64,000 bases of DNA from Alphaproteobacteria bacterium. Its GTDB lineage: Bacteria > Pseudomonadota > Alphaproteobacteria > UBA828. Below, piece by piece: positions 47,738 through 56,975 of this stretch (positions are counted from its first letter, which is position 1; every line of letters begins with the position of its first letter). The notes under the pieces are model-generated. The model did no database searches and was not told the origin of the DNA. It saw only the letters and a program-made list of their open reading frames with translations. A program made the translations under genes and the position numbers. The stretch covers positions 1 through 64,000 of the forward strand of contig CAXXVO010000010.1 in NCBI GenBank assembly GCA_963422645.2, in the 5' to 3' direction.

Positions 47738-47844
47738 ATCCGCGTTTCCGAACAATCAGATAATGTGGTCACACTGTGGTCTTGCACCCGGTCTCCCTGC
47801 GGCGTAGGGTGGGAAGGTCGCTCAGTTTCCAGGAAGCATCGGCT

Positions 47845-48156
47845 ATGGAATACGCCTTGCGCGATGCCAAGGCTCACCTTTCCAAGCTCATCAGGGACGC
47901 TCAGAACGGCAAACGTGTGGTCATCACCAAGCACGGCGAGCCGGTTGTCGAACTCGTGCGCTGCGCGGGGCGGGGCGGAATCGACTTCGACAAGCTGGAA
48001 GCGGACCGCCGGCGCCTTGGGATCGAGGACGCCTCCCCGGAAGAAGCCGAGGCGATGATCGCCGCCTTTCAAGATCCGGCGCTGAGCCGCCGGGTGCTCG
48101 GACTCGAAGACAAAACAGTCATGGTCCCCGCGGTTCTGAGCCACCCCGTGGCATGA
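47845..48156 (+). CDS. Phd/YefM-family antitoxin; last codons replaced by IS110 sequence
   Basis: LRDAKAHLSKLI..AQNGKRVVITKHGEPVVEL; native end reconstructed as ...EDKE* using 56957-56962. Confidence 0.85.
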   Translation: MEYALRDAKAHLSKLIRDAQNGKRVVITKHGEPVVELVRCAGRGGIDFDKLEADRRRLGIEDASPEEAEAMIAAFQDPALSRRVLGLEDKTVMVPAVLSHPVA

Positions 48157-48222
48157 AACAGGAGCGGTTCGGCTGACGTTTTCCTTGCGCTTGCACCCAT
48201 TTGCCGTGTCAGGATGGGTATT

Positions 48223-48405
48223 GGCGGAGGTGGGGACGTGTGAGCGTCGTTATATCGGTGACGTAGTTCCCGATGACAAAACTGCTTCCGGCGGCCGGCT
48301 CCGCACCCCGTATTGTACCCGGCCCGTGGCCGTGGACGCGCGGCAAATTGCACCGCACCCGCTCGTCGGATGCGTGTTCTTCCGACCGCTGTCCCCGCCT
48401 CCACC
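48223..48405 (+). ncRNA. Predicted IS110 bridge RNA (repeated in each unit)
   Basis: Closed by a long stem GGCGGAGGTGGGGAC/GTCCCCGCCTCCACC; contains target- and donor-matching segments (see findings). Confidence 0.65.
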
Positions 48406-48467
48406 GTGGCGATGCCACGGCGTGATCGTACGCCGCCGTGGCGAGAGCGCAAATGAGGAGGAAGGCG

Positions 48468-49718
48468 ATGAAGACGGAAGGCTTGCACGTCGTCCGGCCG
48501 CGCGCGGCGGGTCTGGACGTGCACAAGATGGAGATCACCGCGACGGTTCGCCTCTGTGAGGGCGAGGGTGAGCCGGTGGTGGAGACGCGCTGCTTCGGCA
48601 CGCTGCCGAGCGGTCTGGAGGAGATGGTCGCGTGGCTGACCGGTCACGGCGTCGAGGCTGCGGTGATGGAAGGGACCGGGGTCTACTGGCAGGCGCCCTT
48701 CGCGGCCCTGGAGGCGGCCGGGCTCGAGGCGATCCTGGTGCATGCGCGTCAGGTGAAGCAGTTGAAGGGGCGCAAGACCGACGTGGCGGACAGCGTGTGG
48801 CTGGCCTGCGTGTGCCAGTTCGGGCTCTGCACGCCTTCCCACGTTCCGCCTGAGCCGTTCCGGGAGCTGCGCGCACTGAGCCGCCAGCGCCGCGTCCTGG
48901 TCAGGCAGCGCTCCGCCGTGCGCAACCGCGTGCAGAAGATCATCGACCGCGCCGGTGCGCGCATCGGCGGCATCCTCTCCGACGTCTTCGGCGTCAACGG
49001 CCGGAAGATCCTCGACGGCCTGGCGCAGGGGACGGCGCGCGAGGTCATCCTCGCCTCGCTCACCAGCCACGTTGCGAACAAGCTGGAGGGGCTCGGCGAG
49101 GCGCTCACCCTGAGCCTGGGCGACAACGACCGCTTCATGCTCAACGACCTGCTGGAGGAGCATGACGCGCTTGAGGCGCGCATCGCGTCCTACACCAGGA
49201 AGATCGACGGGCAGATGACACCGTGGGAGGAGCAGCTCCGTCTGCTGACCACCATCCCCGGCATCGACCGCACCGCCGCCTCGACCATCCTCATCGAGAT
49301 CGGCCCCGACATCGGCGTGTTCGCCTCCAAGGAGCACTTCGCCGCCTGGGCCGGGCTCTGCCCCGGCAACAACGAGAGCGGGGGCAAGCGCCGCAACGCA
49401 CGCACCCGCATGGGCTCCAAGACCCTGCGCGCCTGCCTCGTCGAGTGTGCCCACGGCGCGGCCCGAACCAAGGGGTGCCAGTTCGAGGCTCATCACCGCG
49501 CCCTCGCCGCCCGGCGCGGCTACAAGCGCGCCATCGTCGCCGGCGCTCACAAGATGCTGCGCATCATCTATGTGGTGCTCAAGACCGGCAGGCCCTACTA
49601 CGACCGCACGGCCGACTACGACGCTCTGATGGTCAAGCGCAACGCTCCTCGGTGGATCCGCATGCTCCGCCGCTACGGCTACATCGAGCCCGTAGGCGCG
49701 GAACTCAAGGCCGCCTGA
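48468..49718 (+). CDS. IS110 recombinase, copy 1
   Basis: DEDD: GLDVHK, MEGTG, KTDVADS; catalytic Ser in NNESGGK; GAGGAGG RBS. Confidence 0.95.
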   Translation: MKTEGLHVVRPRAAGLDVHKMEITATVRLCEGEGEPVVETRCFGTLPSGLEEMVAWLTGHGVEAAVMEGTGVYWQAPFAALEAAGLEAILVHARQVKQLKGRKTDVADSVWLACVCQFGLCTPSHVPPEPFRELRALSRQRRVLVRQRSAVRNRVQKIIDRAGARIGGILSDVFGVNGRKILDGLAQGTAREVILASLTSHVANKLEGLGEALTLSLGDNDRFMLNDLLEEHDALEARIASYTRKIDGQMTPWEEQLRLLTTIPGIDRTAASTILIEIGPDIGVFASKEHFAAWAGLCPGNNESGGKRRNARTRMGSKTLRACLVECAHGAARTKGCQFEAHHRALAARRGYKRAIVAGAHKMLRIIYVVLKTGRPYYDRTADYDALMVKRNAPRWIRMLRRYGYIEPVGAELKAA

Positions 49719-50235
49719 GCGGCCCGCATCTCGTCAGCCGGCTACGCGGGACCGCTTCGGACCACATCGGGGAAGTCCACCGCTCGTCTCCGCCGCGCCG
49801 ACCCTGGCGGTCTCAGCCAACGCCGTGACCTCGGGGTTGGAGCGTCACCGCGCGTCCCTCGCCAGAATCTGTTTCACGGCAAACAGTCATGGTCCCCGCG
49901 GTTCTGAGCCACCCCGTGGCATGAAACAGGAGCGGTTCGGCTGACGTTTTCCTTGCGCTTGCACCCATTTGCCGTGTCAGGATGGGTATTGGCGGAGGTG
50001 GGGACGTGTGAGCGTCGTTATATCGGTGACGTAGTTCCCGATGACAAAACTGCTTCCGGCGGCCGGCTCCGCACCCCGTATTGTACCCGGCCCGTGGCCG
50101 TGGACGCGCGGCAAATTGCACCGCACCCGCTCGTCGGATGCGTGTTCTTCCGACCGCTGTCCCCGCCTCCACCGTGGCGATGCCACGGCGTGATCGTACG
50201 CCGCCGTGGCGAGAGCGCAAATGAGGAGGAAGGCG

Positions 50236-51486
50236 ATGAAGACGGAAGGCTTGCACGTCGTCCGGCCGCGCGCGGCGGGTCTGGACGTGCACAAGATGGA
50301 GATCACCGCGACGGTTCGCCTCTGTGAGGGCGAGGGTGAGCCGGTGGTGGAGACGCGCTGCTTCGGCACGCTGCCGAGCGGTCTGGAGGAGATGGTCGCG
50401 TGGCTGACCGGTCACGGCGTCGAGGCTGCGGTGATGGAAGGGACCGGGGTCTACTGGCAGGCGCCCTTCGCGGCCCTGGAGGCGGCCGGGCTCGAGGCGA
50501 TCCTGGTGCATGCGCGTCAGGTGAAGCAGTTGAAGGGGCGCAAGACCGACGTGGCGGACAGCGTGTGGCTGGCCTGCGTGTGCCAGTTCGGGCTCTGCAC
50601 GCCTTCCCACGTTCCGCCTGAGCCGTTCCGGGAGCTGCGCGCACTGAGCCGCCAGCGCCGCGTCCTGGTCAGGCAGCGCTCCGCCGTGCGCAACCGCGTG
50701 CAGAAGATCATCGACCGCGCCGGTGCGCGCATCGGCGGCATCCTCTCCGACGTCTTCGGCGTCAACGGCCGGAAGATCCTCGACGGCCTGGCGCAGGGGA
50801 CGGCGCGCGAGGTCATCCTCGCCTCGCTCACCAGCCACGTTGCGAACAAGCTGGAGGGGCTCGGCGAGGCGCTCACCCTGAGCCTGGGCGACAACGACCG
50901 CTTCATGCTCAACGACCTGCTGGAGGAGCATGACGCGCTTGAGGCGCGCATCGCGTCCTACACCAGGAAGATCGACGGGCAGATGACACCGTGGGAGGAG
51001 CAGCTCCGTCTGCTGACCACCATCCCCGGCATCGACCGCACCGCCGCCTCGACCATCCTCATCGAGATCGGCCCCGACATCGGCGTGTTCGCCTCCAAGG
51101 AGCACTTCGCCGCCTGGGCCGGGCTCTGCCCCGGCAACAACGAGAGCGGGGGCAAGCGCCGCAACGCACGCACCCGCATGGGCTCCAAGACCCTGCGCGC
51201 CTGCCTCGTCGAGTGTGCCCACGGCGCGGCCCGAACCAAGGGGTGCCAGTTCGAGGCTCATCACCGCGCCCTCGCCGCCCGGCGCGGCTACAAGCGCGCC
51301 ATCGTCGCCGGCGCTCACAAGATGCTGCGCATCATCTATGTGGTGCTCAAGACCGGCAGGCCCTACTACGACCGCACGGCCGACTACGACGCTCTGATGG
51401 TCAAGCGCAACGCTCCTCGGTGGATCCGCATGCTCCGCCGCTACGGCTACATCGAGCCCGTAGGCGCGGAACTCAAGGCCGCCTGA
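50236..51486 (+). CDS. IS110 recombinase, copy 2
   Basis: Identical translation to copy 1. Confidence 0.93.
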   Translation: MKTEGLHVVRPRAAGLDVHKMEITATVRLCEGEGEPVVETRCFGTLPSGLEEMVAWLTGHGVEAAVMEGTGVYWQAPFAALEAAGLEAILVHARQVKQLKGRKTDVADSVWLACVCQFGLCTPSHVPPEPFRELRALSRQRRVLVRQRSAVRNRVQKIIDRAGARIGGILSDVFGVNGRKILDGLAQGTAREVILASLTSHVANKLEGLGEALTLSLGDNDRFMLNDLLEEHDALEARIASYTRKIDGQMTPWEEQLRLLTTIPGIDRTAASTILIEIGPDIGVFASKEHFAAWAGLCPGNNESGGKRRNARTRMGSKTLRACLVECAHGAARTKGCQFEAHHRALAARRGYKRAIVAGAHKMLRIIYVVLKTGRPYYDRTADYDALMVKRNAPRWIRMLRRYGYIEPVGAELKAA

Positions 51487-52003
51487 GCGGCCCGCATCTC
51501 GTCAGCCGGCTACGCGGGACCGCTTCGGACCACATCGGGGAAGTCCACCGCTCGTCTCCGCCGCGCCGACCCTGGCGGTCTCAGCCAACGCCGTGACCTC
51601 GGGGTTGGAGCGTCACCGCGCGTCCCTCGCCAGAATCTGTTTCACGGCAAACAGTCATGGTCCCCGCGGTTCTGAGCCACCCCGTGGCATGAAACAGGAG
51701 CGGTTCGGCTGACGTTTTCCTTGCGCTTGCACCCATTTGCCGTGTCAGGATGGGTATTGGCGGAGGTGGGGACGTGTGAGCGTCGTTATATCGGTGACGT
51801 AGTTCCCGATGACAAAACTGCTTCCGGCGGCCGGCTCCGCACCCCGTATTGTACCCGGCCCGTGGCCGTGGACGCGCGGCAAATTGCACCGCACCCGCTC
51901 GTCGGATGCGTGTTCTTCCGACCGCTGTCCCCGCCTCCACCGTGGCGATGCCACGGCGTGATCGTACGCCGCCGTGGCGAGAGCGCAAATGAGGAGGAAG
52001 GCG

Positions 52004-53254
52004 ATGAAGACGGAAGGCTTGCACGTCGTCCGGCCGCGCGCGGCGGGTCTGGACGTGCACAAGATGGAGATCACCGCGACGGTTCGCCTCTGTGAGGGCG
52101 AGGGTGAGCCGGTGGTGGAGACGCGCTGCTTCGGCACGCTGCCGAGCGGTCTGGAGGAGATGGTCGCGTGGCTGACCGGTCACGGCGTCGAGGCTGCGGT
52201 GATGGAAGGGACCGGGGTCTACTGGCAGGCGCCCTTCGCGGCCCTGGAGGCGGCCGGGCTCGAGGCGATCCTGGTGCATGCGCGTCAGGTGAAGCAGTTG
52301 AAGGGGCGCAAGACCGACGTGGCGGACAGCGTGTGGCTGGCCTGCGTGTGCCAGTTCGGGCTCTGCACGCCTTCCCACGTTCCGCCTGAGCCGTTCCGGG
52401 AGCTGCGCGCACTGAGCCGCCAGCGCCGCGTCCTGGTCAGGCAGCGCTCCGCCGTGCGCAACCGCGTGCAGAAGATCATCGACCGCGCCGGTGCGCGCAT
52501 CGGCGGCATCCTCTCCGACGTCTTCGGCGTCAACGGCCGGAAGATCCTCGACGGCCTGGCGCAGGGGACGGCGCGCGAGGTCATCCTCGCCTCGCTCACC
52601 AGCCACGTTGCGAACAAGCTGGAGGGGCTCGGCGAGGCGCTCACCCTGAGCCTGGGCGACAACGACCGCTTCATGCTCAACGACCTGCTGGAGGAGCATG
52701 ACGCGCTTGAGGCGCGCATCGCGTCCTACACCAGGAAGATCGACGGGCAGATGACACCGTGGGAGGAGCAGCTCCGTCTGCTGACCACCATCCCCGGCAT
52801 CGACCGCACCGCCGCCTCGACCATCCTCATCGAGATCGGCCCCGACATCGGCGTGTTCGCCTCCAAGGAGCACTTCGCCGCCTGGGCCGGGCTCTGCCCC
52901 GGCAACAACGAGAGCGGGGGCAAGCGCCGCAACGCACGCACCCGCATGGGCTCCAAGACCCTGCGCGCCTGCCTCGTCGAGTGTGCCCACGGCGCGGCCC
53001 GAACCAAGGGGTGCCAGTTCGAGGCTCATCACCGCGCCCTCGCCGCCCGGCGCGGCTACAAGCGCGCCATCGTCGCCGGCGCTCACAAGATGCTGCGCAT
53101 CATCTATGTGGTGCTCAAGACCGGCAGGCCCTACTACGACCGCACGGCCGACTACGACGCTCTGATGGTCAAGCGCAACGCTCCTCGGTGGATCCGCATG
53201 CTCCGCCGCTACGGCTACATCGAGCCCGTAGGCGCGGAACTCAAGGCCGCCTGA
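52004..53254 (+). CDS. IS110 recombinase, copy 3
   Basis: Identical translation to copy 1. Confidence 0.93.
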   Translation: MKTEGLHVVRPRAAGLDVHKMEITATVRLCEGEGEPVVETRCFGTLPSGLEEMVAWLTGHGVEAAVMEGTGVYWQAPFAALEAAGLEAILVHARQVKQLKGRKTDVADSVWLACVCQFGLCTPSHVPPEPFRELRALSRQRRVLVRQRSAVRNRVQKIIDRAGARIGGILSDVFGVNGRKILDGLAQGTAREVILASLTSHVANKLEGLGEALTLSLGDNDRFMLNDLLEEHDALEARIASYTRKIDGQMTPWEEQLRLLTTIPGIDRTAASTILIEIGPDIGVFASKEHFAAWAGLCPGNNESGGKRRNARTRMGSKTLRACLVECAHGAARTKGCQFEAHHRALAARRGYKRAIVAGAHKMLRIIYVVLKTGRPYYDRTADYDALMVKRNAPRWIRMLRRYGYIEPVGAELKAA

Positions 53255-53772
53255 GCGGCCCGCATCTCGTCAGCCGGCTACGCGGGACCGCTTCGGACCA
53301 CATCGGGGAAGTCCACCGCTCGTCTCCGCCGCGCCGACCCTGGCGGTCTCAGCCAACGCCGTGACCTCGGGGTTGGAGCGTCACCGCGCGTCCCTCGCCA
53401 GAATCTGTTTCACGGCAAAACAGTCATGGTCCCCGCGGTTCTGAGCCACCCCGTGGCATGAAACAGGAGCGGTTCGGCTGACGTTTTCCTTGCGCTTGCA
53501 CCCATTTGCCGTGTCAGGATGGGTATTGGCGGAGGTGGGGACGTGTGAGCGTCGTTATATCGGTGACGTAGTTCCCGATGACAAAACTGCTTCCGGCGGC
53601 CGGCTCCGCACCCCGTATTGTACCCGGCCCGTGGCCGTGGACGCGCGGCAAATTGCACCGCACCCGCTCGTCGGATGCGTGTTCTTCCGACCGCTGTCCC
53701 CGCCTCCACCGTGGCGATGCCACGGCGTGATCGTACGCCGCCGTGGCGAGAGCGCAAATGAGGAGGAAGGCG

Positions 53773-55023
53773 ATGAAGACGGAAGGCTTGCACGTCGTCC
53801 GGCCGCGCGCGGCGGGTCTGGACGTGCACAAGATGGAGATCACCGCGACGGTTCGCCTCTGTGAGGGCGAGGGTGAGCCGGTGGTGGAGACGCGCTGCTT
53901 CGGCACGCTGCCGAGCGGTCTGGAGGAGATGGTCGCGTGGCTGACCGGTCACGGCGTCGAGGCTGCGGTGATGGAAGGGACCGGGGTCTACTGGCAGGCG
54001 CCCTTCGCGGCCCTGGAGGCGGCCGGGCTCGAGGCGATCCTGGTGCATGCGCGTCAGGTGAAGCAGTTGAAGGGGCGCAAGACCGACGTGGCGGACAGCG
54101 TGTGGCTGGCCTGCGTGTGCCAGTTCGGGCTCTGCACGCCTTCCCACGTTCCGCCTGAGCCGTTCCGGGAGCTGCGCGCACTGAGCCGCCAGCGCCGCGT
54201 CCTGGTCAGGCAGCGCTCCGCCGTGCGCAACCGCGTGCAGAAGATCATCGACCGCGCCGGTGCGCGCATCGGCGGCATCCTCTCCGACGTCTTCGGCGTC
54301 AACGGCCGGAAGATCCTCGACGGCCTGGCGCAGGGGACGGCGCGCGAGGTCATCCTCGCCTCGCTCACCAGCCACGTTGCGAACAAGCTGGAGGGGCTCG
54401 GCGAGGCGCTCACCCTGAGCCTGGGCGACAACGACCGCTTCATGCTCAACGACCTGCTGGAGGAGCATGACGCGCTTGAGGCGCGCATCGCGTCCTACAC
54501 CAGGAAGATCGACGGGCAGATGACACCGTGGGAGGAGCAGCTCCGTCTGCTGACCACCATCCCCGGCATCGACCGCACCGCCGCCTCGACCATCCTCATC
54601 GAGATCGGCCCCGACATCGGCGTGTTCGCCTCCAAGGAGCACTTCGCCGCCTGGGCCGGGCTCTGCCCCGGCAACAACGAGAGCGGGGGCAAGCGCCGCA
54701 ACGCACGCACCCGCATGGGCTCCAAGACCCTGCGCGCCTGCCTCGTCGAGTGTGCCCACGGCGCGGCCCGAACCAAGGGGTGCCAGTTCGAGGCTCATCA
54801 CCGCGCCCTCGCCGCCCGGCGCGGCTACAAGCGCGCCATCGTCGCCGGCGCTCACAAGATGCTGCGCATCATCTATGTGGTGCTCAAGACCGGCAGGCCC
54901 TACTACGACCGCACGGCCGACTACGACGCTCTGATGGTCAAGCGCAACGCTCCTCGGTGGATCCGCATGCTCCGCCGCTACGGCTACATCGAGCCCGTAG
55001 GCGCGGAACTCAAGGCCGCCTGA
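53773..55023 (+). CDS. IS110 recombinase, copy 4
   Basis: Identical translation to copy 1. Confidence 0.93.
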   Translation: MKTEGLHVVRPRAAGLDVHKMEITATVRLCEGEGEPVVETRCFGTLPSGLEEMVAWLTGHGVEAAVMEGTGVYWQAPFAALEAAGLEAILVHARQVKQLKGRKTDVADSVWLACVCQFGLCTPSHVPPEPFRELRALSRQRRVLVRQRSAVRNRVQKIIDRAGARIGGILSDVFGVNGRKILDGLAQGTAREVILASLTSHVANKLEGLGEALTLSLGDNDRFMLNDLLEEHDALEARIASYTRKIDGQMTPWEEQLRLLTTIPGIDRTAASTILIEIGPDIGVFASKEHFAAWAGLCPGNNESGGKRRNARTRMGSKTLRACLVECAHGAARTKGCQFEAHHRALAARRGYKRAIVAGAHKMLRIIYVVLKTGRPYYDRTADYDALMVKRNAPRWIRMLRRYGYIEPVGAELKAA

Positions 55024-55541
55024 GCGGCCCGCATCTCGTCAGCCGGCTACGCGGGACCGCTTCGGACCACATCGGGGAAGTCCACCGCTCGTCTCCGCCG
55101 CGCCGACCCTGGCGGTCTCAGCCAACGCCGTGACCTCGGGGTTGGAGCGTCACCGCGCGTCCCTCGCCAGAATCTGTTTCACGGCAAAACAGTCATGGTC
55201 CCCGCGGTTCTGAGCCACCCCGTGGCATGAAACAGGAGCGGTTCGGCTGACGTTTTCCTTGCGCTTGCACCCATTTGCCGTGTCAGGATGGGTATTGGCG
55301 GAGGTGGGGACGTGTGAGCGTCGTTATATCGGTGACGTAGTTCCCGATGACAAAACTGCTTCCGGCGGCCGGCTCCGCACCCCGTATTGTACCCGGCCCG
55401 TGGCCGTGGACGCGCGGCAAATTGCACCGCACCCGCTCGTCGGATGCGTGTTCTTCCGACCGCTGTCCCCGCCTCCACCGTGGCGATGCCACGGCGTGAT
55501 CGTACGCCGCCGTGGCGAGAGCGCAAATGAGGAGGAAGGCG

Positions 55542-56792
55542 ATGAAGACGGAAGGCTTGCACGTCGTCCGGCCGCGCGCGGCGGGTCTGGACGTGCACAA
55601 GATGGAGATCACCGCGACGGTTCGCCTCTGTGAGGGCGAGGGTGAGCCGGTGGTGGAGACGCGCTGCTTCGGCACGCTGCCGAGCGGTCTGGAGGAGATG
55701 GTCGCGTGGCTGACCGGTCACGGCGTCGAGGCTGCGGTGATGGAAGGGACCGGGGTCTACTGGCAGGCGCCCTTCGCGGCCCTGGAGGCGGCCGGGCTCG
55801 AGGCGATCCTGGTGCATGCGCGTCAGGTGAAGCAGTTGAAGGGGCGCAAGACCGACGTGGCGGACAGCGTGTGGCTGGCCTGCGTGTGCCAGTTCGGGCT
55901 CTGCACGCCTTCCCACGTTCCGCCTGAGCCGTTCCGGGAGCTGCGCGCACTGAGCCGCCAGCGCCGCGTCCTGGTCAGGCAGCGCTCCGCCGTGCGCAAC
56001 CGCGTGCAGAAGATCATCGACCGCGCCGGTGCGCGCATCGGCGGCATCCTCTCCGACGTCTTCGGCGTCAACGGCCGGAAGATCCTCGACGGCCTGGCGC
56101 AGGGGACGGCGCGCGAGGTCATCCTCGCCTCGCTCACCAGCCACGTTGCGAACAAGCTGGAGGGGCTCGGCGAGGCGCTCACCCTGAGCCTGGGCGACAA
56201 CGACCGCTTCATGCTCAACGACCTGCTGGAGGAGCATGACGCGCTTGAGGCGCGCATCGCGTCCTACACCAGGAAGATCGACGGGCAGATGACACCGTGG
56301 GAGGAGCAGCTCCGTCTGCTGACCACCATCCCCGGCATCGACCGCACCGCCGCCTCGACCATCCTCATCGAGATCGGCCCCGACATCGGCGTGTTCGCCT
56401 CCAAGGAGCACTTCGCCGCCTGGGCCGGGCTCTGCCCCGGCAACAACGAGAGCGGGGGCAAGCGCCGCAACGCACGCACCCGCATGGGCTCCAAGACCCT
56501 GCGCGCCTGCCTCGTCGAGTGTGCCCACGGCGCGGCCCGAACCAAGGGGTGCCAGTTCGAGGCTCATCACCGCGCCCTCGCCGCCCGGCGCGGCTACAAG
56601 CGCGCCATCGTCGCCGGCGCTCACAAGATGCTGCGCATCATCTATGTGGTGCTCAAGACCGGCAGGCCCTACTACGACCGCACGGCCGACTACGACGCTC
56701 TGATGGTCAAGCGCAACGCTCCTCGGTGGATCCGCATGCTCCGCCGCTACGGCTACATCGAGCCCGTAGGCGCGGAACTCAAGGCCGCCTGA
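55542..56792 (+). CDS. IS110 recombinase, copy 5
   Basis: Identical translation to copy 1. Confidence 0.93.
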   Translation: MKTEGLHVVRPRAAGLDVHKMEITATVRLCEGEGEPVVETRCFGTLPSGLEEMVAWLTGHGVEAAVMEGTGVYWQAPFAALEAAGLEAILVHARQVKQLKGRKTDVADSVWLACVCQFGLCTPSHVPPEPFRELRALSRQRRVLVRQRSAVRNRVQKIIDRAGARIGGILSDVFGVNGRKILDGLAQGTAREVILASLTSHVANKLEGLGEALTLSLGDNDRFMLNDLLEEHDALEARIASYTRKIDGQMTPWEEQLRLLTTIPGIDRTAASTILIEIGPDIGVFASKEHFAAWAGLCPGNNESGGKRRNARTRMGSKTLRACLVECAHGAARTKGCQFEAHHRALAARRGYKRAIVAGAHKMLRIIYVVLKTGRPYYDRTADYDALMVKRNAPRWIRMLRRYGYIEPVGAELKAA

Positions 56793-56975
56793 GCGGCCCG
56801 CATCTCGTCAGCCGGCTACGCGGGACCGCTTCGGACCACATCGGGGAAGTCCACCGCTCGTCTCCGCCGCGCCGACCCTGGCGGTCTCAGCCAACGCCGT
56901 GACCTCGGGGTTGGAGCGTCACCGCGCGTCCCTCGCCAGAATCTGTTTCACGGCAAGAATAGCGGCCGAACACCG

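Follow-up and report, generated by a model that had tools for sequence, protein, structure and literature searches.

The left non-coding end of an IS110-family insertion sequence, which is arrayed in the window (the whole stretch of 64,000 nucleotides that was analysed), probably encodes a guide RNA of the bridge/seek type. We hold this with good confidence as a joint reading, which comprises a predicted RNA with two confirmed guides, their proposed pairing with target and donor, a candidate third guide in the loop strand J5 and re-insertion of the element within its arrays. An earlier note on this DNA had already claimed that the left end of the arrayed IS110 carries readable RNA guides. This central claim holds, as the predicted RNA has a conserved and covarying structure, and the covariation of guides and flanks across homologues, which the note had proposed as a check, is found for the left-target and the left-donor guide.

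The unit of 1768 bp occurs five times head-to-tail, with copies starting at 48115, 49883, 51651, 53420 and 55189 and the array ending at 56956 (Table 1). The lengths of the five units are 1768, 1768, 1769, 1769 and 1768 bp, and apart from one extra A at two junctions and the flank base the units are identical. The unit is an IS110-family insertion sequence with 353 nt of non-coding DNA up to the ATG of the recombinase gene and 165 nt past the gene. This ATG is kept in the alignment of the relatives, and the recombinase has 416–426 aa. A profile search identified the domains PF01548 (1.9e-23) and PF02371 (4.6e-21), that is the DEDD/RuvC-like and Tnp domains; the recombinase matches the transposases of IS621 (E 7e-16) and ISCro4 (2.5e-15), and its ESG aligns to the serine motif region of IS621. 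By these matches the recombinase is distantly homologous to that of IS621. The own genome carries 48 identical copies at 33 distinct sites and contains six arrays with 11 internal junctions. Head-to-tail copies are also present in the relatives L077 and L105–L107, and L051 has a short right-end duplication. Where two copies adjoin in tandem, the junction is identical to the one expected for a circle. The clade has members in metagenome-assembled genomes with the labels Alphaproteobacteria, Thalassobaculaceae, Paracoccaceae, Pseudomonadales, Binatia, Vicinamibacterales and Bryobacterales. A tblastn search against plasmids returned no named element, only matches of less than 60% identity labelled "IS110 family transposase", and no match to the RNA pattern of this element turned up in viral contigs.

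Table 1. Positions of the features of the first element copy and of the array flanks in the window
Feature	Position	Strand	Remarks
Left target (LT) GACTCGAAGACA	48101–48112	+	only GACA (48109–48112) agrees with the consensus of all sites
Core AA, left junction	48113–48114	+	the same AA closes every copy, e.g. 49881–49882 and 56955–56956 (right end of the array)
First element copy	48115–49882	+	spans right-donor base 1 to the core
Subterminal inverted repeat, left copy TGAAACAG	48154–48161	+	inverse of CTGTTTCA at 49869–49876 near the right end
Antisense 9-mer TTTGCCGTG	48200–48208	+	antisense to the donor junction CACGGCAAA
P1 closing stem, 5′ strand	48226–48235	+	partner 48393–48402; 9 pairs, 5 changed on both sides
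P2, 5′ strand AGCG	48243–48246	+	partner TGCT 48283–48286; closes the predicted target-binding loop
J5 TCGTTATAT	48247–48255	+	5′ strand of the internal loop between P2 and P3, rich in T; candidate right-target guide
P3 hairpin	48256–48272	+	within the predicted target-binding loop; 5 pairs, 93.3% of cells paired
Left-target guide AT-GACA-AA-AC	48273–48282	+	3′ strand of the P2/P3 loop
P4, 5′ strand	48289–48298	+	partner 48382–48391; encloses the predicted donor-binding three-way junction; 9 pairs, 7 changed on both sides
J4/5 CTCCGCACCCCGTAT	48299–48313	+	conserved CG[AC][GA]CCCCG motif, then three variable bases; target complementarity at chance level
P5 hairpin	48314–48338	+	9 pairs, 98.1% of cells paired
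Left-donor guide CGCGGCAAA	48339–48347	+	same sense as the right end CACGGC-AA-A; between P5 and P6
P6 hairpin CGCACCCG/CGGATGCG	48354–48374	+	arms 48354–48361/48367–48374; 7 pairs and one C·A
J6/4 TGTTCTT	48375–48381	+	not kept in relatives with the same ends; no covariation
Recombinase gene	48468–49718	+	likely start ATG 48468, behind GAGGAGGAAGG; mechanical open reading frame from GTG 48438
Left donor (LD) TTTCACGGC	49872–49880	+	right end of copy 1
Right target (RT) GAATAGCGGCCG	56957–56968	+	right flank of the array

The left flank of the array reads ...CGAAGACA-AA-ACAGTC, with the element beginning at ACAGTC, and the last right junction reads CACGGC-AA-GAATAGCGG. When the 33 distinct insertion sites of the own genome are compared, the logo gACA-AA-[A/G]t is obtained: G is found at position −4 in 17 sites, A at −3 in 29, C at −2 in all 33 and A at −1 in 32, and in the right half information is confined to +1 and +2. 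The core reads AA at 33/33 left and 32/33 right junctions. Three of five unoccupied paralogous sites read LT-AA-RT exactly (CACA-AA-ATCC, AACA-AA-ACGC and AACA-AA-GTGC) and the other two depart from this prediction. The element inserts at an AA that is common to target and donor and does so without duplication, in agreement with the AA core that the earlier note proposed. The readable target of the 1768-bp element is only about 7 nt long, gACA-AA-[A/G]. From the preferred target GATGACA-AA-CAATA of that note the part gACA-AA is retained, whereas CGAT upstream of it and CAATA as the right half carry no information in the 33 sites: C at +1 occurs in 0/33 and A at +2 in 4/33.

A conserved and covarying RNA structure is found at about 48223–48405 on the + strand, on which the recombinase gene also lies. 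All alignments were made with MAFFT, and the structure set contains 30 of the 80 sequences listed from 149 genome matches. For 36 pairs in five helices 93.7% of the cells are paired, as compared to 83.3% after shuffling and 41–52% when the partner is slid. Changes on both sides are present at 21 of the 36 pairs, and in none of 500 shuffles is one of the five measures attained. P6 does not enter the pair count, being offset in the MAFFT alignment; a hairpin at its place is visible in every family. Many of the conserved pairs are G·U (for example 26/86 in 28 of the 30 sequences and 120/154 in 19 of them), and these pairs fit the + strand only, since the other strand would have C·A mismatches. 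Covariation is also seen in P2, where column 24/88 has UA in 15, GC in 11, AU in three and CG in one sequence and column 23/89 has GC in 15 and AU in 10. The closing stem 48223–48237/48391–48405, which had been described before, consists of 13 Watson–Crick pairs, one G·U and one C·A and is backed by covariation. The RNA predicted in this way is closed by P1 and has two domains, a P2/P3 stem–loop with an internal loop and a three-way junction of P4, P5 and P6. Folds of the single sequence carried no information (z = −2.03 over 183 nt, −0.17 over 325 nt). About 60 nt separate the end of the structure from the start codon and the ribosome-binding site downstream, and close relatives have further hairpins between P1 and the start.

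In the left-target guide GACA corresponds to the left target, AA to the core and AC to the element bases 1–2. Among 31 distinct guide variants the match to the own flank is 3.44 of 6 positions, compared to 1.47 (sd 0.17) for shuffled flanks, a value which none of 5000 shuffles attains; an earlier set of 24 variants had given 3.59 of 6 against 1.47, again with 0/5000. The match is beyond chance in the sequences compared. The guide thus tracks the left flank in the 31 variants, and it fits the 33 sites of the own genome. Natural retargeting is seen among relatives with 88–94% protein identity, namely L036, L038, L041 and L047/L053.

One could argue that such sense matches are features of the DNA, either internal copies bound by the recombinase or remnants of past insertions, and that a guide RNA is not involved. 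The support for the RNA indeed comes from sequence. In Rfam 15 no family matches the left end, with sub-threshold chance matches only; a scan of 49700–50260 revealed neither a promoter nor a terminator, and no sigma-70-like promoter was seen at the junction. Contigs of relatives (90–99% alike) occur in four RNA-library runs; they are silent on ends, strand and level, carry no meaning where cover is missing, and could stem from DNA. In addition, the inverted repeat between the element ends exists at the DNA level. Nevertheless, in 31 variants a change of the flank, which lies outside of the element, goes along with a change of the guide segment, and the loops that contain both guide segments belong to a structure in which 21 pairs are compensated and the conserved G·U pairs are strand-specific. 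Homologous recombinases use such RNAs, as described in the text of PMC11208160 and PMC11187229. We consider an explanation at the DNA level highly improbable.

Another reading would be that the left end acts mainly as a 5′ untranslated leader, through which the recombinase mRNA is controlled in its translation or stability, and that the guide-like matches are secondary. The stop of the structure some 60 nt short of the start codon and ribosome-binding site and the extra hairpins in close relatives would be in line with this function. However, a leader leaves the covariation with target and donor flanks unexplained, and we give very little credence to it as the main role of the left end, where a leader role and a guide role would be compatible with each other.

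For the predicted guide RNA the donor side gives a second guide. The base of the left-donor guide is identical to the variable donor position −3 in 21/21 families, an agreement in a single column that is inflated by clade structure, as an unrelated stem column agrees to 90% with the same donor position. The guide variants CGGC, CAGC and TGGC follow the element's right end with one exception (L060), and at the guide columns a sense match of at least 5 nt is present in 20–21 of the 21 families. The left and right ends also share a subterminal inverted repeat of 6–10 bp which covaries: the longest inverted match between own ends has a mean of 7.47, compared to 6.04 (sd 0.21) for shuffled ends (0/1000, 19 distinct end pairs). 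The exact antisense copy of the donor junction at 48200–48208, reported before, is present. This 9-mer is pairing-competent in 10/10 close relatives (7–9 of 9 positions, G·U allowed) and absent in 15 distant families (0–6 of 9). As the anti-guide considered in the note, it may likewise pair with the left-donor guide; a compensatory change is unobservable here because the donor guide is invariant in the one clade which has the 9-mer.

The earlier note came to a different conclusion concerning the layout of the RNA. It suggested an IS621-like bridge RNA with the order left-target guide (48271–48280), right-target guide (48311–48316), left-donor guide (48339–48347) and right-donor guide (48375–48378). 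All four strings are present at these positions, including CGATGACAAA at 48271–48280, and both left guides are confirmed, whereas TATTGT as right-target guide and TGTT as right-donor guide are chance matches. By arithmetic with equal base use, a 5/6 match is expected about 0.8 times and a 4/4 match about 0.7 times in 183 nt. The first half of TATTGT falls in J4/5 and the second half is buried in P5, where TGT is paired with ACG 48336–48338 in a stem with nearly all cells paired. The columns 119–120, which should hold a conserved TT, have TT, CT, CC, AT or TC though the core AA is invariant. When TATTGT was compared in every register with LT6+AA+RT8 no complementarity was found (the lowest values were 38 and 49/500 shuffles, and separately 99/1000), and the target sites themselves lack the predicted C at +1 and mostly the A at +2. 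TGTT is complementary to AACA, that is core base 2 and element bases 1–3, and GTT or GTTT follows P6 in about half of the families. It is lost in the nearest relative L031, whose identical ends are accompanied by TGTC; the same TGTC is present in L036, L038, L041, L047, L053 and L094, regardless of the right-donor sequence. The mutual information of RD3, RD4, RD5, RD10 and RD11 with all alignment columns of the left and right ends gave no consistent signal, and none of the columns covaries with RD3/RD4. Antisense donor matches of at least 5 nt did not occur at a consistent place, and a contact of 3–4 nt to invariant bases is possible. The J6/4 strand was also compared with the targets, and 197/1000 shuffles attain its match. 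Concerning the order of the guides, the text of PMC11208158 describes for IS621 simple internal loops that have the left guides in their 5′ strand, and a left-target guide that precedes its hairpin; here the left-target guide follows its hairpin and belongs to the 3′ strand of the loop between P2 and P3, and the left-donor guide is situated in the three-way junction. The IS621-like layout with four guides is largely refuted by the other insertion sites and the homologues, and we regard it as very unlikely.

Instead of TATTGT, J5 is the candidate for the right-target guide. It is the sole T-rich loop strand opposite the invariant AA core. Its longest antisense run against AA+RT is 3.95 nt for own targets and 3.37 nt (sd 0.16) for shuffled ones (0/1000, 22 families), an effect of modest size with a register that varies among the families. 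The best matches have 8 nt (L095) and 6 nt (L058, L039 and L122). For the 1768-bp element J5 predicts (A)TAACG, with the own sites being informative at +1 and +2 only.

We suggest that the RNA acts as follows. The segment 48273–48282, which has the sense of the left target and the AA core, would base-pair with the target's bottom strand, and the segment 48339–48347, which has the sense of the right end and the core, would base-pair with the donor's bottom strand, both as in IS621. J5 would read the right target, so that the top-strand match would stand before the bottom-strand match, which is the order of IS1111-type seekRNAs. The right donor side would be read, if at all, at invariant bases only. 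An inserted copy would leave a usable target, because the left-target guide still fits the left junction GACA-AA-AC and little of the right half is read. A left junction that can be targeted again would explain the head-to-tail arrays. A simple re-insertion model fails to yield the four A's, not three, which are found at 5 of the 11 internal array junctions.

Bridge and seek RNAs serve as programmable recombination tools, and to our knowledge few of their natural architectures have been bench-tested so far. The 48 copies at 33 sites of a single genome, together with over 30 guide variants from the relatives, make the element a source of clean natural data on which guide positions are read. Its targeting is unusual, as the left-target guide appears to work with four bases and the AA core while the target is hardly constrained in its right half, and the layout of its guides departs from IS621. 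A left junction that stays a target would be a reason for IS110-family elements to accumulate in head-to-tail order. If nothing beyond the two confirmed guides holds, the element would be an ordinary addition to a family described in 2024.

By its sequence the system is of the already known bridge/seek RNA kind with a variant layout. As far as the text of Durrant et al. 2024 (PMC11208160) and Hiraizumi et al. 2024 (PMC11208158) describes IS621, both elements have a two-domain recombinase and a guide RNA (here predicted) from the left end, left guides with top-strand sense that include the core, no target duplication and a tandem junction that equals the circle junction. Unlike IS621, the element has the core AA instead of CT, a recombinase of 416–426 aa instead of 328 aa (chain length), the left-target guide on the 3′ instead of the 5′ loop strand and the donor guide in a three-way junction instead of a simple internal loop; a right-donor guide and a promoter-like site at the junction were not found here. 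The covarying subterminal inverted repeat of 6–10 bp compares to 2–3 bp given for the IS110 group in the descriptions consulted. In this respect the element resembles the IS1111 type, for which subterminal inverted repeats of 7–17 bp are given. Further likenesses are a top-strand match that lies 5′ of its bottom-strand counterpart, provided that J5 is the guide for the right target (Siddiquee et al. 2024, PMC11187229), and a multi-loop with the donor-binding nucleotides, as described for many IS1111 members (Durrant et al. 2024, PMC11208160). On the contrary, the long non-coding region lies upstream of the gene (353 vs 165 nt) and not downstream, as is almost always the case in IS1111 according to PMC11187229, and the recombinase is much longer than the 330–350 aa stated for IS1111 members. 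The seekRNA of ISEc21, a member of the IS110 family, is similar as it is described with an upstream non-coding region carrying the guide RNA (here predicted), insertion without duplication and natural retargeting in a relative via base changes in the guide (PMC11187229). In the same description its top-strand match is located on the 3′ side of the bottom-strand one, whereas here the bottom-strand match, that is the left-target guide, is the 3′ one. Head-to-tail loci with multiple copies of whole elements have also been reported in a preprint (n = 437 cases); unlike these loci, the left junction here still has everything that the left-target guide reads. The layout is unusual when compared to the published text descriptions, and PMC11208160 may depict it already in Fig. 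6d, Extended Data Fig. 10c and Supplementary Table 5. Taking all this together, we put forward as a tentative and, in its entirety, rather doubtful proposal that the clade forms a distinct architectural class of bridge RNAs. Such an RNA would be encoded at the left end as in the IS110 group and built as in the IS1111 type, with a top-strand target guide first and the donor guide in a three-way junction, and would have no programmable right-donor guide. The covarying repeat at 48154–48161 and, in the close clade, TTTGCCGTG at 48200–48208, both antisense to the right end, would act as RNA or within a single-stranded circle and help to present the donor junction, and the left target, of which about 7 nt are read, would survive insertion and be targeted again to give the arrays.

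The array consists of five head-to-tail units of 1768, 1768, 1769, 1769 and 1768 bp whose only difference is an additional A at two of the junctions. In each copy an open reading frame encodes PF01548 and PF02371, the two Pfam domains of IS110. The encoded recombinase is a distant homologue of the solved transposases of IS621 (E 7e-16) and ISCro4 (E 2.5e-15). With exact 40-mers of both ends we found 48 left and 48 right ends on the 23 contigs of the genome; 47 copies have 100% identity and one has 98%. The copies are spread over 37 places representing 33 distinct sites, and six of these places carry arrays of 2 to 5 copies. The array in the window disrupts a Phd/YefM antitoxin gene at its 3′ end, whose reading frame now extends 42 nt into the element, and parts it from the downstream gene of the presumed toxin–antitoxin pair. 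Repeated elements abound in this genome. One repeat occurs in ~66 copies, of which one, unoccupied, lies in the window and another, located elsewhere, carries the element. In two element copies (C21:59025 and C8:774880), the left flank of one and the reverse-complemented right flank of the other are nearly the same, which suggests either that an inversion took place between copies or that the element inserted into two paralogues of opposite orientation.

At the left, the junction is ...ACAAAA/CAGTC or a close variant at all 33 sites; at the right, CACGGCAA precedes A, G or T. Unoccupied paralogous copies are present in the genome for 5 of the 33 sites, and three of them are exact fusions of left target half, core and right target half (CACA-AA-ATCC, AACA-AA-ACGC and AACA-AA-GTGC). 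Given the number of A's on both sides, the donor is CACGGC-AA-ACAGTC and the target ..ACA-AA-N, without duplication; at the AAAG site this is also the sole register without a core mismatch. Thus, the empty paralogues fix the register of the AA core that the earlier note had proposed. The other two deviate: one has AG at the core, and for the other, from a 103-copy repeat, 3 nt are missing at the right junction. The latter insertion (C6:66373-68138, outside the window) lies in a repeat whose 103 unoccupied copies read GACAAGGATATCG; with its right junction CACGGCA/TATCG, three lost bases and core AT it looks like an imprecise or off-target event. Counted from the core, the 33 sites have G at -4 in 17, A at -3 in 29, C at -2 in 33 and A at -1 in 32 cases, the core AA throughout, A (24) or G (8) at +1 and T (14) at +2. 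The predicted right half CAATA is not compatible with these sites, as C is found at +1 in 0/33 and A at +2 in 4/33. GACAAAA occurs 175 times in the genome, 48 times inside the guide itself and sometimes at left junctions; about a hundred unoccupied sites remain.

A scan of one genome per species yielded 149 relatives from metagenome-assembled genomes of several phyla, many of them multi-copy, and 80 of the 149 loci (51–97% protein identity) were analysed. Ends were derived by comparing copies within a genome, and single-copy junctions from conserved end motifs. A degenerate pattern of the RNA core retrieved 20 further loci from metagenome contigs and none from viral contigs. All families have AA at both junctions, a right end T[T/A]CA[C/T][A/G]GC and a left end of AC (AG in L095), two variable bases and TCATG. 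For 30 of 81 available left ends, one or two per family, RNAalifold predicts five helices with 36 pairs. Standard pairs occupy 93.7% of the cells as compared to 83.3% in shuffled alignments and 41–52% with the partner slid, changes on both sides are seen in 21 of the 36 pairs, and 0/500 shuffles reached any of five pairing measures. The conserved G.U pairs are compatible with the + strand only. The P6 hairpin is visible in every family and was left out of the pair count because it is misaligned. The 183-nt region with its closing stem is therefore well supported by the alignment and its compensated pairs. In this layout helix P1 encloses two domains: P2 with the strand J5, the P3 hairpin and the left-target guide, and P4 with J4/5, the P5 hairpin, the left-donor guide, the P6 hairpin and J6/4. 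A CCCCG motif occurs three times, and a variable or guide-like segment follows immediately on its 3′ side each time: first the left inverted repeat, then the left-target guide, and last the variable bases of J4/5. In L057 two identical guide-RNA regions (936-1124 and 2284-2472) are 1348 bp apart, less than a full element, so that one of them lies in an element that is partial or rearranged.

Features of the element and its surroundings in the window, and guide matches of homologous loci (L numbers)
Feature	Position	Sequence	Match or location
Antitoxin gene	47776-48156
Array of five units	48115-56956
Downstream gene	56957 onward
Array junctions	49881-49884, 51649-51652, 53417-53421, 55186-55190
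Unoccupied repeat	~31517
CCCCG motif	48140-48148, 48268-48272, 48306-48310	CACCCCG, TTCCCG or GCACCCCG
Subterminal inverted repeat	48154-48161		49869-49876
Proposed anti-guide	48200-48208	TTTGCCGTG
J5	48247-48255
Left-target guide	48273-48282	AT-GACA-AA-AC	loop strand
P5 strand	48336-48338	ACG	TGT of TATTGT
Left-donor guide	48339-48347	CGCGGCAAA	between P5 and P6
P6 hairpin	48354-48374
L036 left-target guide		GCAAA-AA	flank ctGCAAA-AA
L038 left-target guide		GATCT-AA	flank cATCT-AA
L053 left-target guide		CGCCA-AA	flank tCGCCA-AA
L119 left-target guide		AAACT-AA	flank cAAACT-AA
L095 J5		AATTACTT	target AA-GTAATT (8 nt)
L058 group J5		CCGCAT	target A-TGCGG (6 nt; 7 of 8 sites listed, 9 sites in all)
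L039 J5		TCCTTT	target AA-AGGA
L122 J5		GAAGGT	target A-CCTTC

Across homologues, no part of the RNA varies as much as the left-target guide strand, which follows the left flank. For 24 guide variants in 96 guide/site combinations own flanks scored 3.59/6 as compared to 1.47 (sd 0.20) for shuffled families (0/5000 shuffles), and for 31 variants, with the metagenome loci added, 3.44 as compared to 1.47 (0/5000). Thus, the covariation of guide and flank, named earlier as a check, is found for this guide and, together with the 33 sites, supports its GACA-AA part; CGAT at -5 to -8 carries no matching information, and C71 and G72 of the guide as first drawn are part of stem P3. In the left-donor guide the base aligned to donor -3 is identical to the donor in 21/21 families, and CGGC, CAGC and TGGC guides are found with CGGC, CAGC and TGGC ends, the sole exception being L060 at position -4. 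Since 90% agreement with donor -3 is likewise seen for a stem column that has no relation to the donor, clade structure contributes and the single-column figure is no probability. At the sequence level, the contiguous identity of 6–8 nt between guide and donor in 20–21 of 21 families is the stronger support for this assignment, which we retain.

The assignment of TATTGT as right-target guide has to be given up. Its TGT forms the base of stem P5, and GT is preceded by TT, CT, CC, AT, TC or GC, depending on the family. As the core AA is invariant, a guide for core and right target must hold its complement, and TT is not conserved here. Compared in every register to LT6+AA+RT8 (left target, core, right target), the variable bases were never above shuffled families (lowest 38 and 49 of 500), and a register-free test of this segment against the targets gave 99/1000 shuffles. 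Among the loop strands only J5 is T-rich; it faces the left-target guide across one internal loop. The longest run of J5 antisense to AA+RT10 measures 3.95 with own targets, as compared to 3.37 with shuffled targets (sd 0.16, maximum 3.93; 0/1000, 22 families); in a test with 21 families 2/400 shuffles reached the observed value. The register relative to P3 differs among families, several of which match 3–4 nt only, and as the sites of the window element show only A or G at +1 and T at +2, J5 adds two bases at most. Given these antisense matches, we slightly favor J5 as the right-target guide.

TGTT, the suggested right-donor guide, is complementary to AACA. TGTC is found instead in L031, which has identical ends, and also, irrespective of the right donor they carry, in L036, L038, L041, L047, L053 and L094. 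In the alignments of the left and right ends, no column shows complementary covariation with RD3 and RD4, the donor positions that vary, and no antisense donor match of at least 5 nt occurs at a consistent column. TGTT is thus discarded, and a programmable right-donor guide was not found in these alignments; there may be a short RNA contact to the invariant AAAC. The proposed anti-guide is exact in the window element. In 10 close relatives it can pair at 7–9 of 9 positions (slid controls 1–7), the changes being C-to-U and retaining G.U pairs, and in 15 distant families it pairs at 0–6 of 9 positions. Within the close clade the donor guide does not vary, so that compensatory change cannot be seen, and the pairing may reflect a function or a clade-specific coincidence. 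Each copy has a covarying subterminal inverted repeat: the 8 bases preceding CGGC-AA at the right end recur in inverted form ~40 nt into the element on its left side, and the variants GTTTCA, GTTACA, CTTACA and ATTTCA change on both sides in 19 end pairs.

Head-to-tail copies are also found in L077 and L105–L107, and L051 has a short duplication of the right end. Passages of a 2026 preprint describe tandem duplication of whole IS110 modules and argue that the target is not regenerated by IS110 insertion (10.64898/2026.08.14.744561). The left junction GACA-AA-AC retains everything the left-target guide reads, and the right half is hardly specified; from this we infer that the arrays could arise by re-insertion at the left junction of a resident copy. 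The junctions of the six arrays read CACGGC-AAA(A)-CAGTC, with three A's in 6/11 and four in 5/11. Conservative re-insertion of a three-A donor yields three-A junctions only and leaves the four-A junctions unexplained, for which register slippage in the A run or homopolymer error is possible. One paralogous site carries 3, 1 and 2 copies at C10, C19 and C8, respectively; therefore, either the array size changed after the surrounding repeat was duplicated or the arrays arose independently.

Relatives that are 90–99% alike occur as contigs in four RNA libraries, and one contig runs from a flank ending in GACGACA into the left end; neither ends nor strand nor level can be read from such contigs, which may also stem from carried-over DNA. 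Judged from its sequence, the element is a bridge-RNA element with an AA core. This part of the earlier note stands, whereas two of its four guide assignments and the target it predicts do not.

According to published descriptions, IS621 has two simple internal loops in which the 5′ strand carries the left guide and the 3′ strand the right guide, with the handshake bases 3′ of the latter (PMC11208158, PMC11208160). In contrast, the donor guide of our element lies in a multi-loop. As stated in passages of Siddiquee et al. (PMC11187229), IS1111-type and IS110-type seekRNAs have their top- and bottom-strand matches in opposite orders, and IS1111 members carry subterminal inverted repeats and have the non-coding region downstream, with few exceptions. 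The guide order of our element is probably of the IS1111 type. Its upstream non-coding region and long recombinase resemble the IS110 subgroup proper, whereas the covarying inverted repeat of 6–10 bp, joining left-end ~+40 with the right end, resembles IS1111. The RNA architecture, which is worth a bench test, is a variant of the layouts that these descriptions present.
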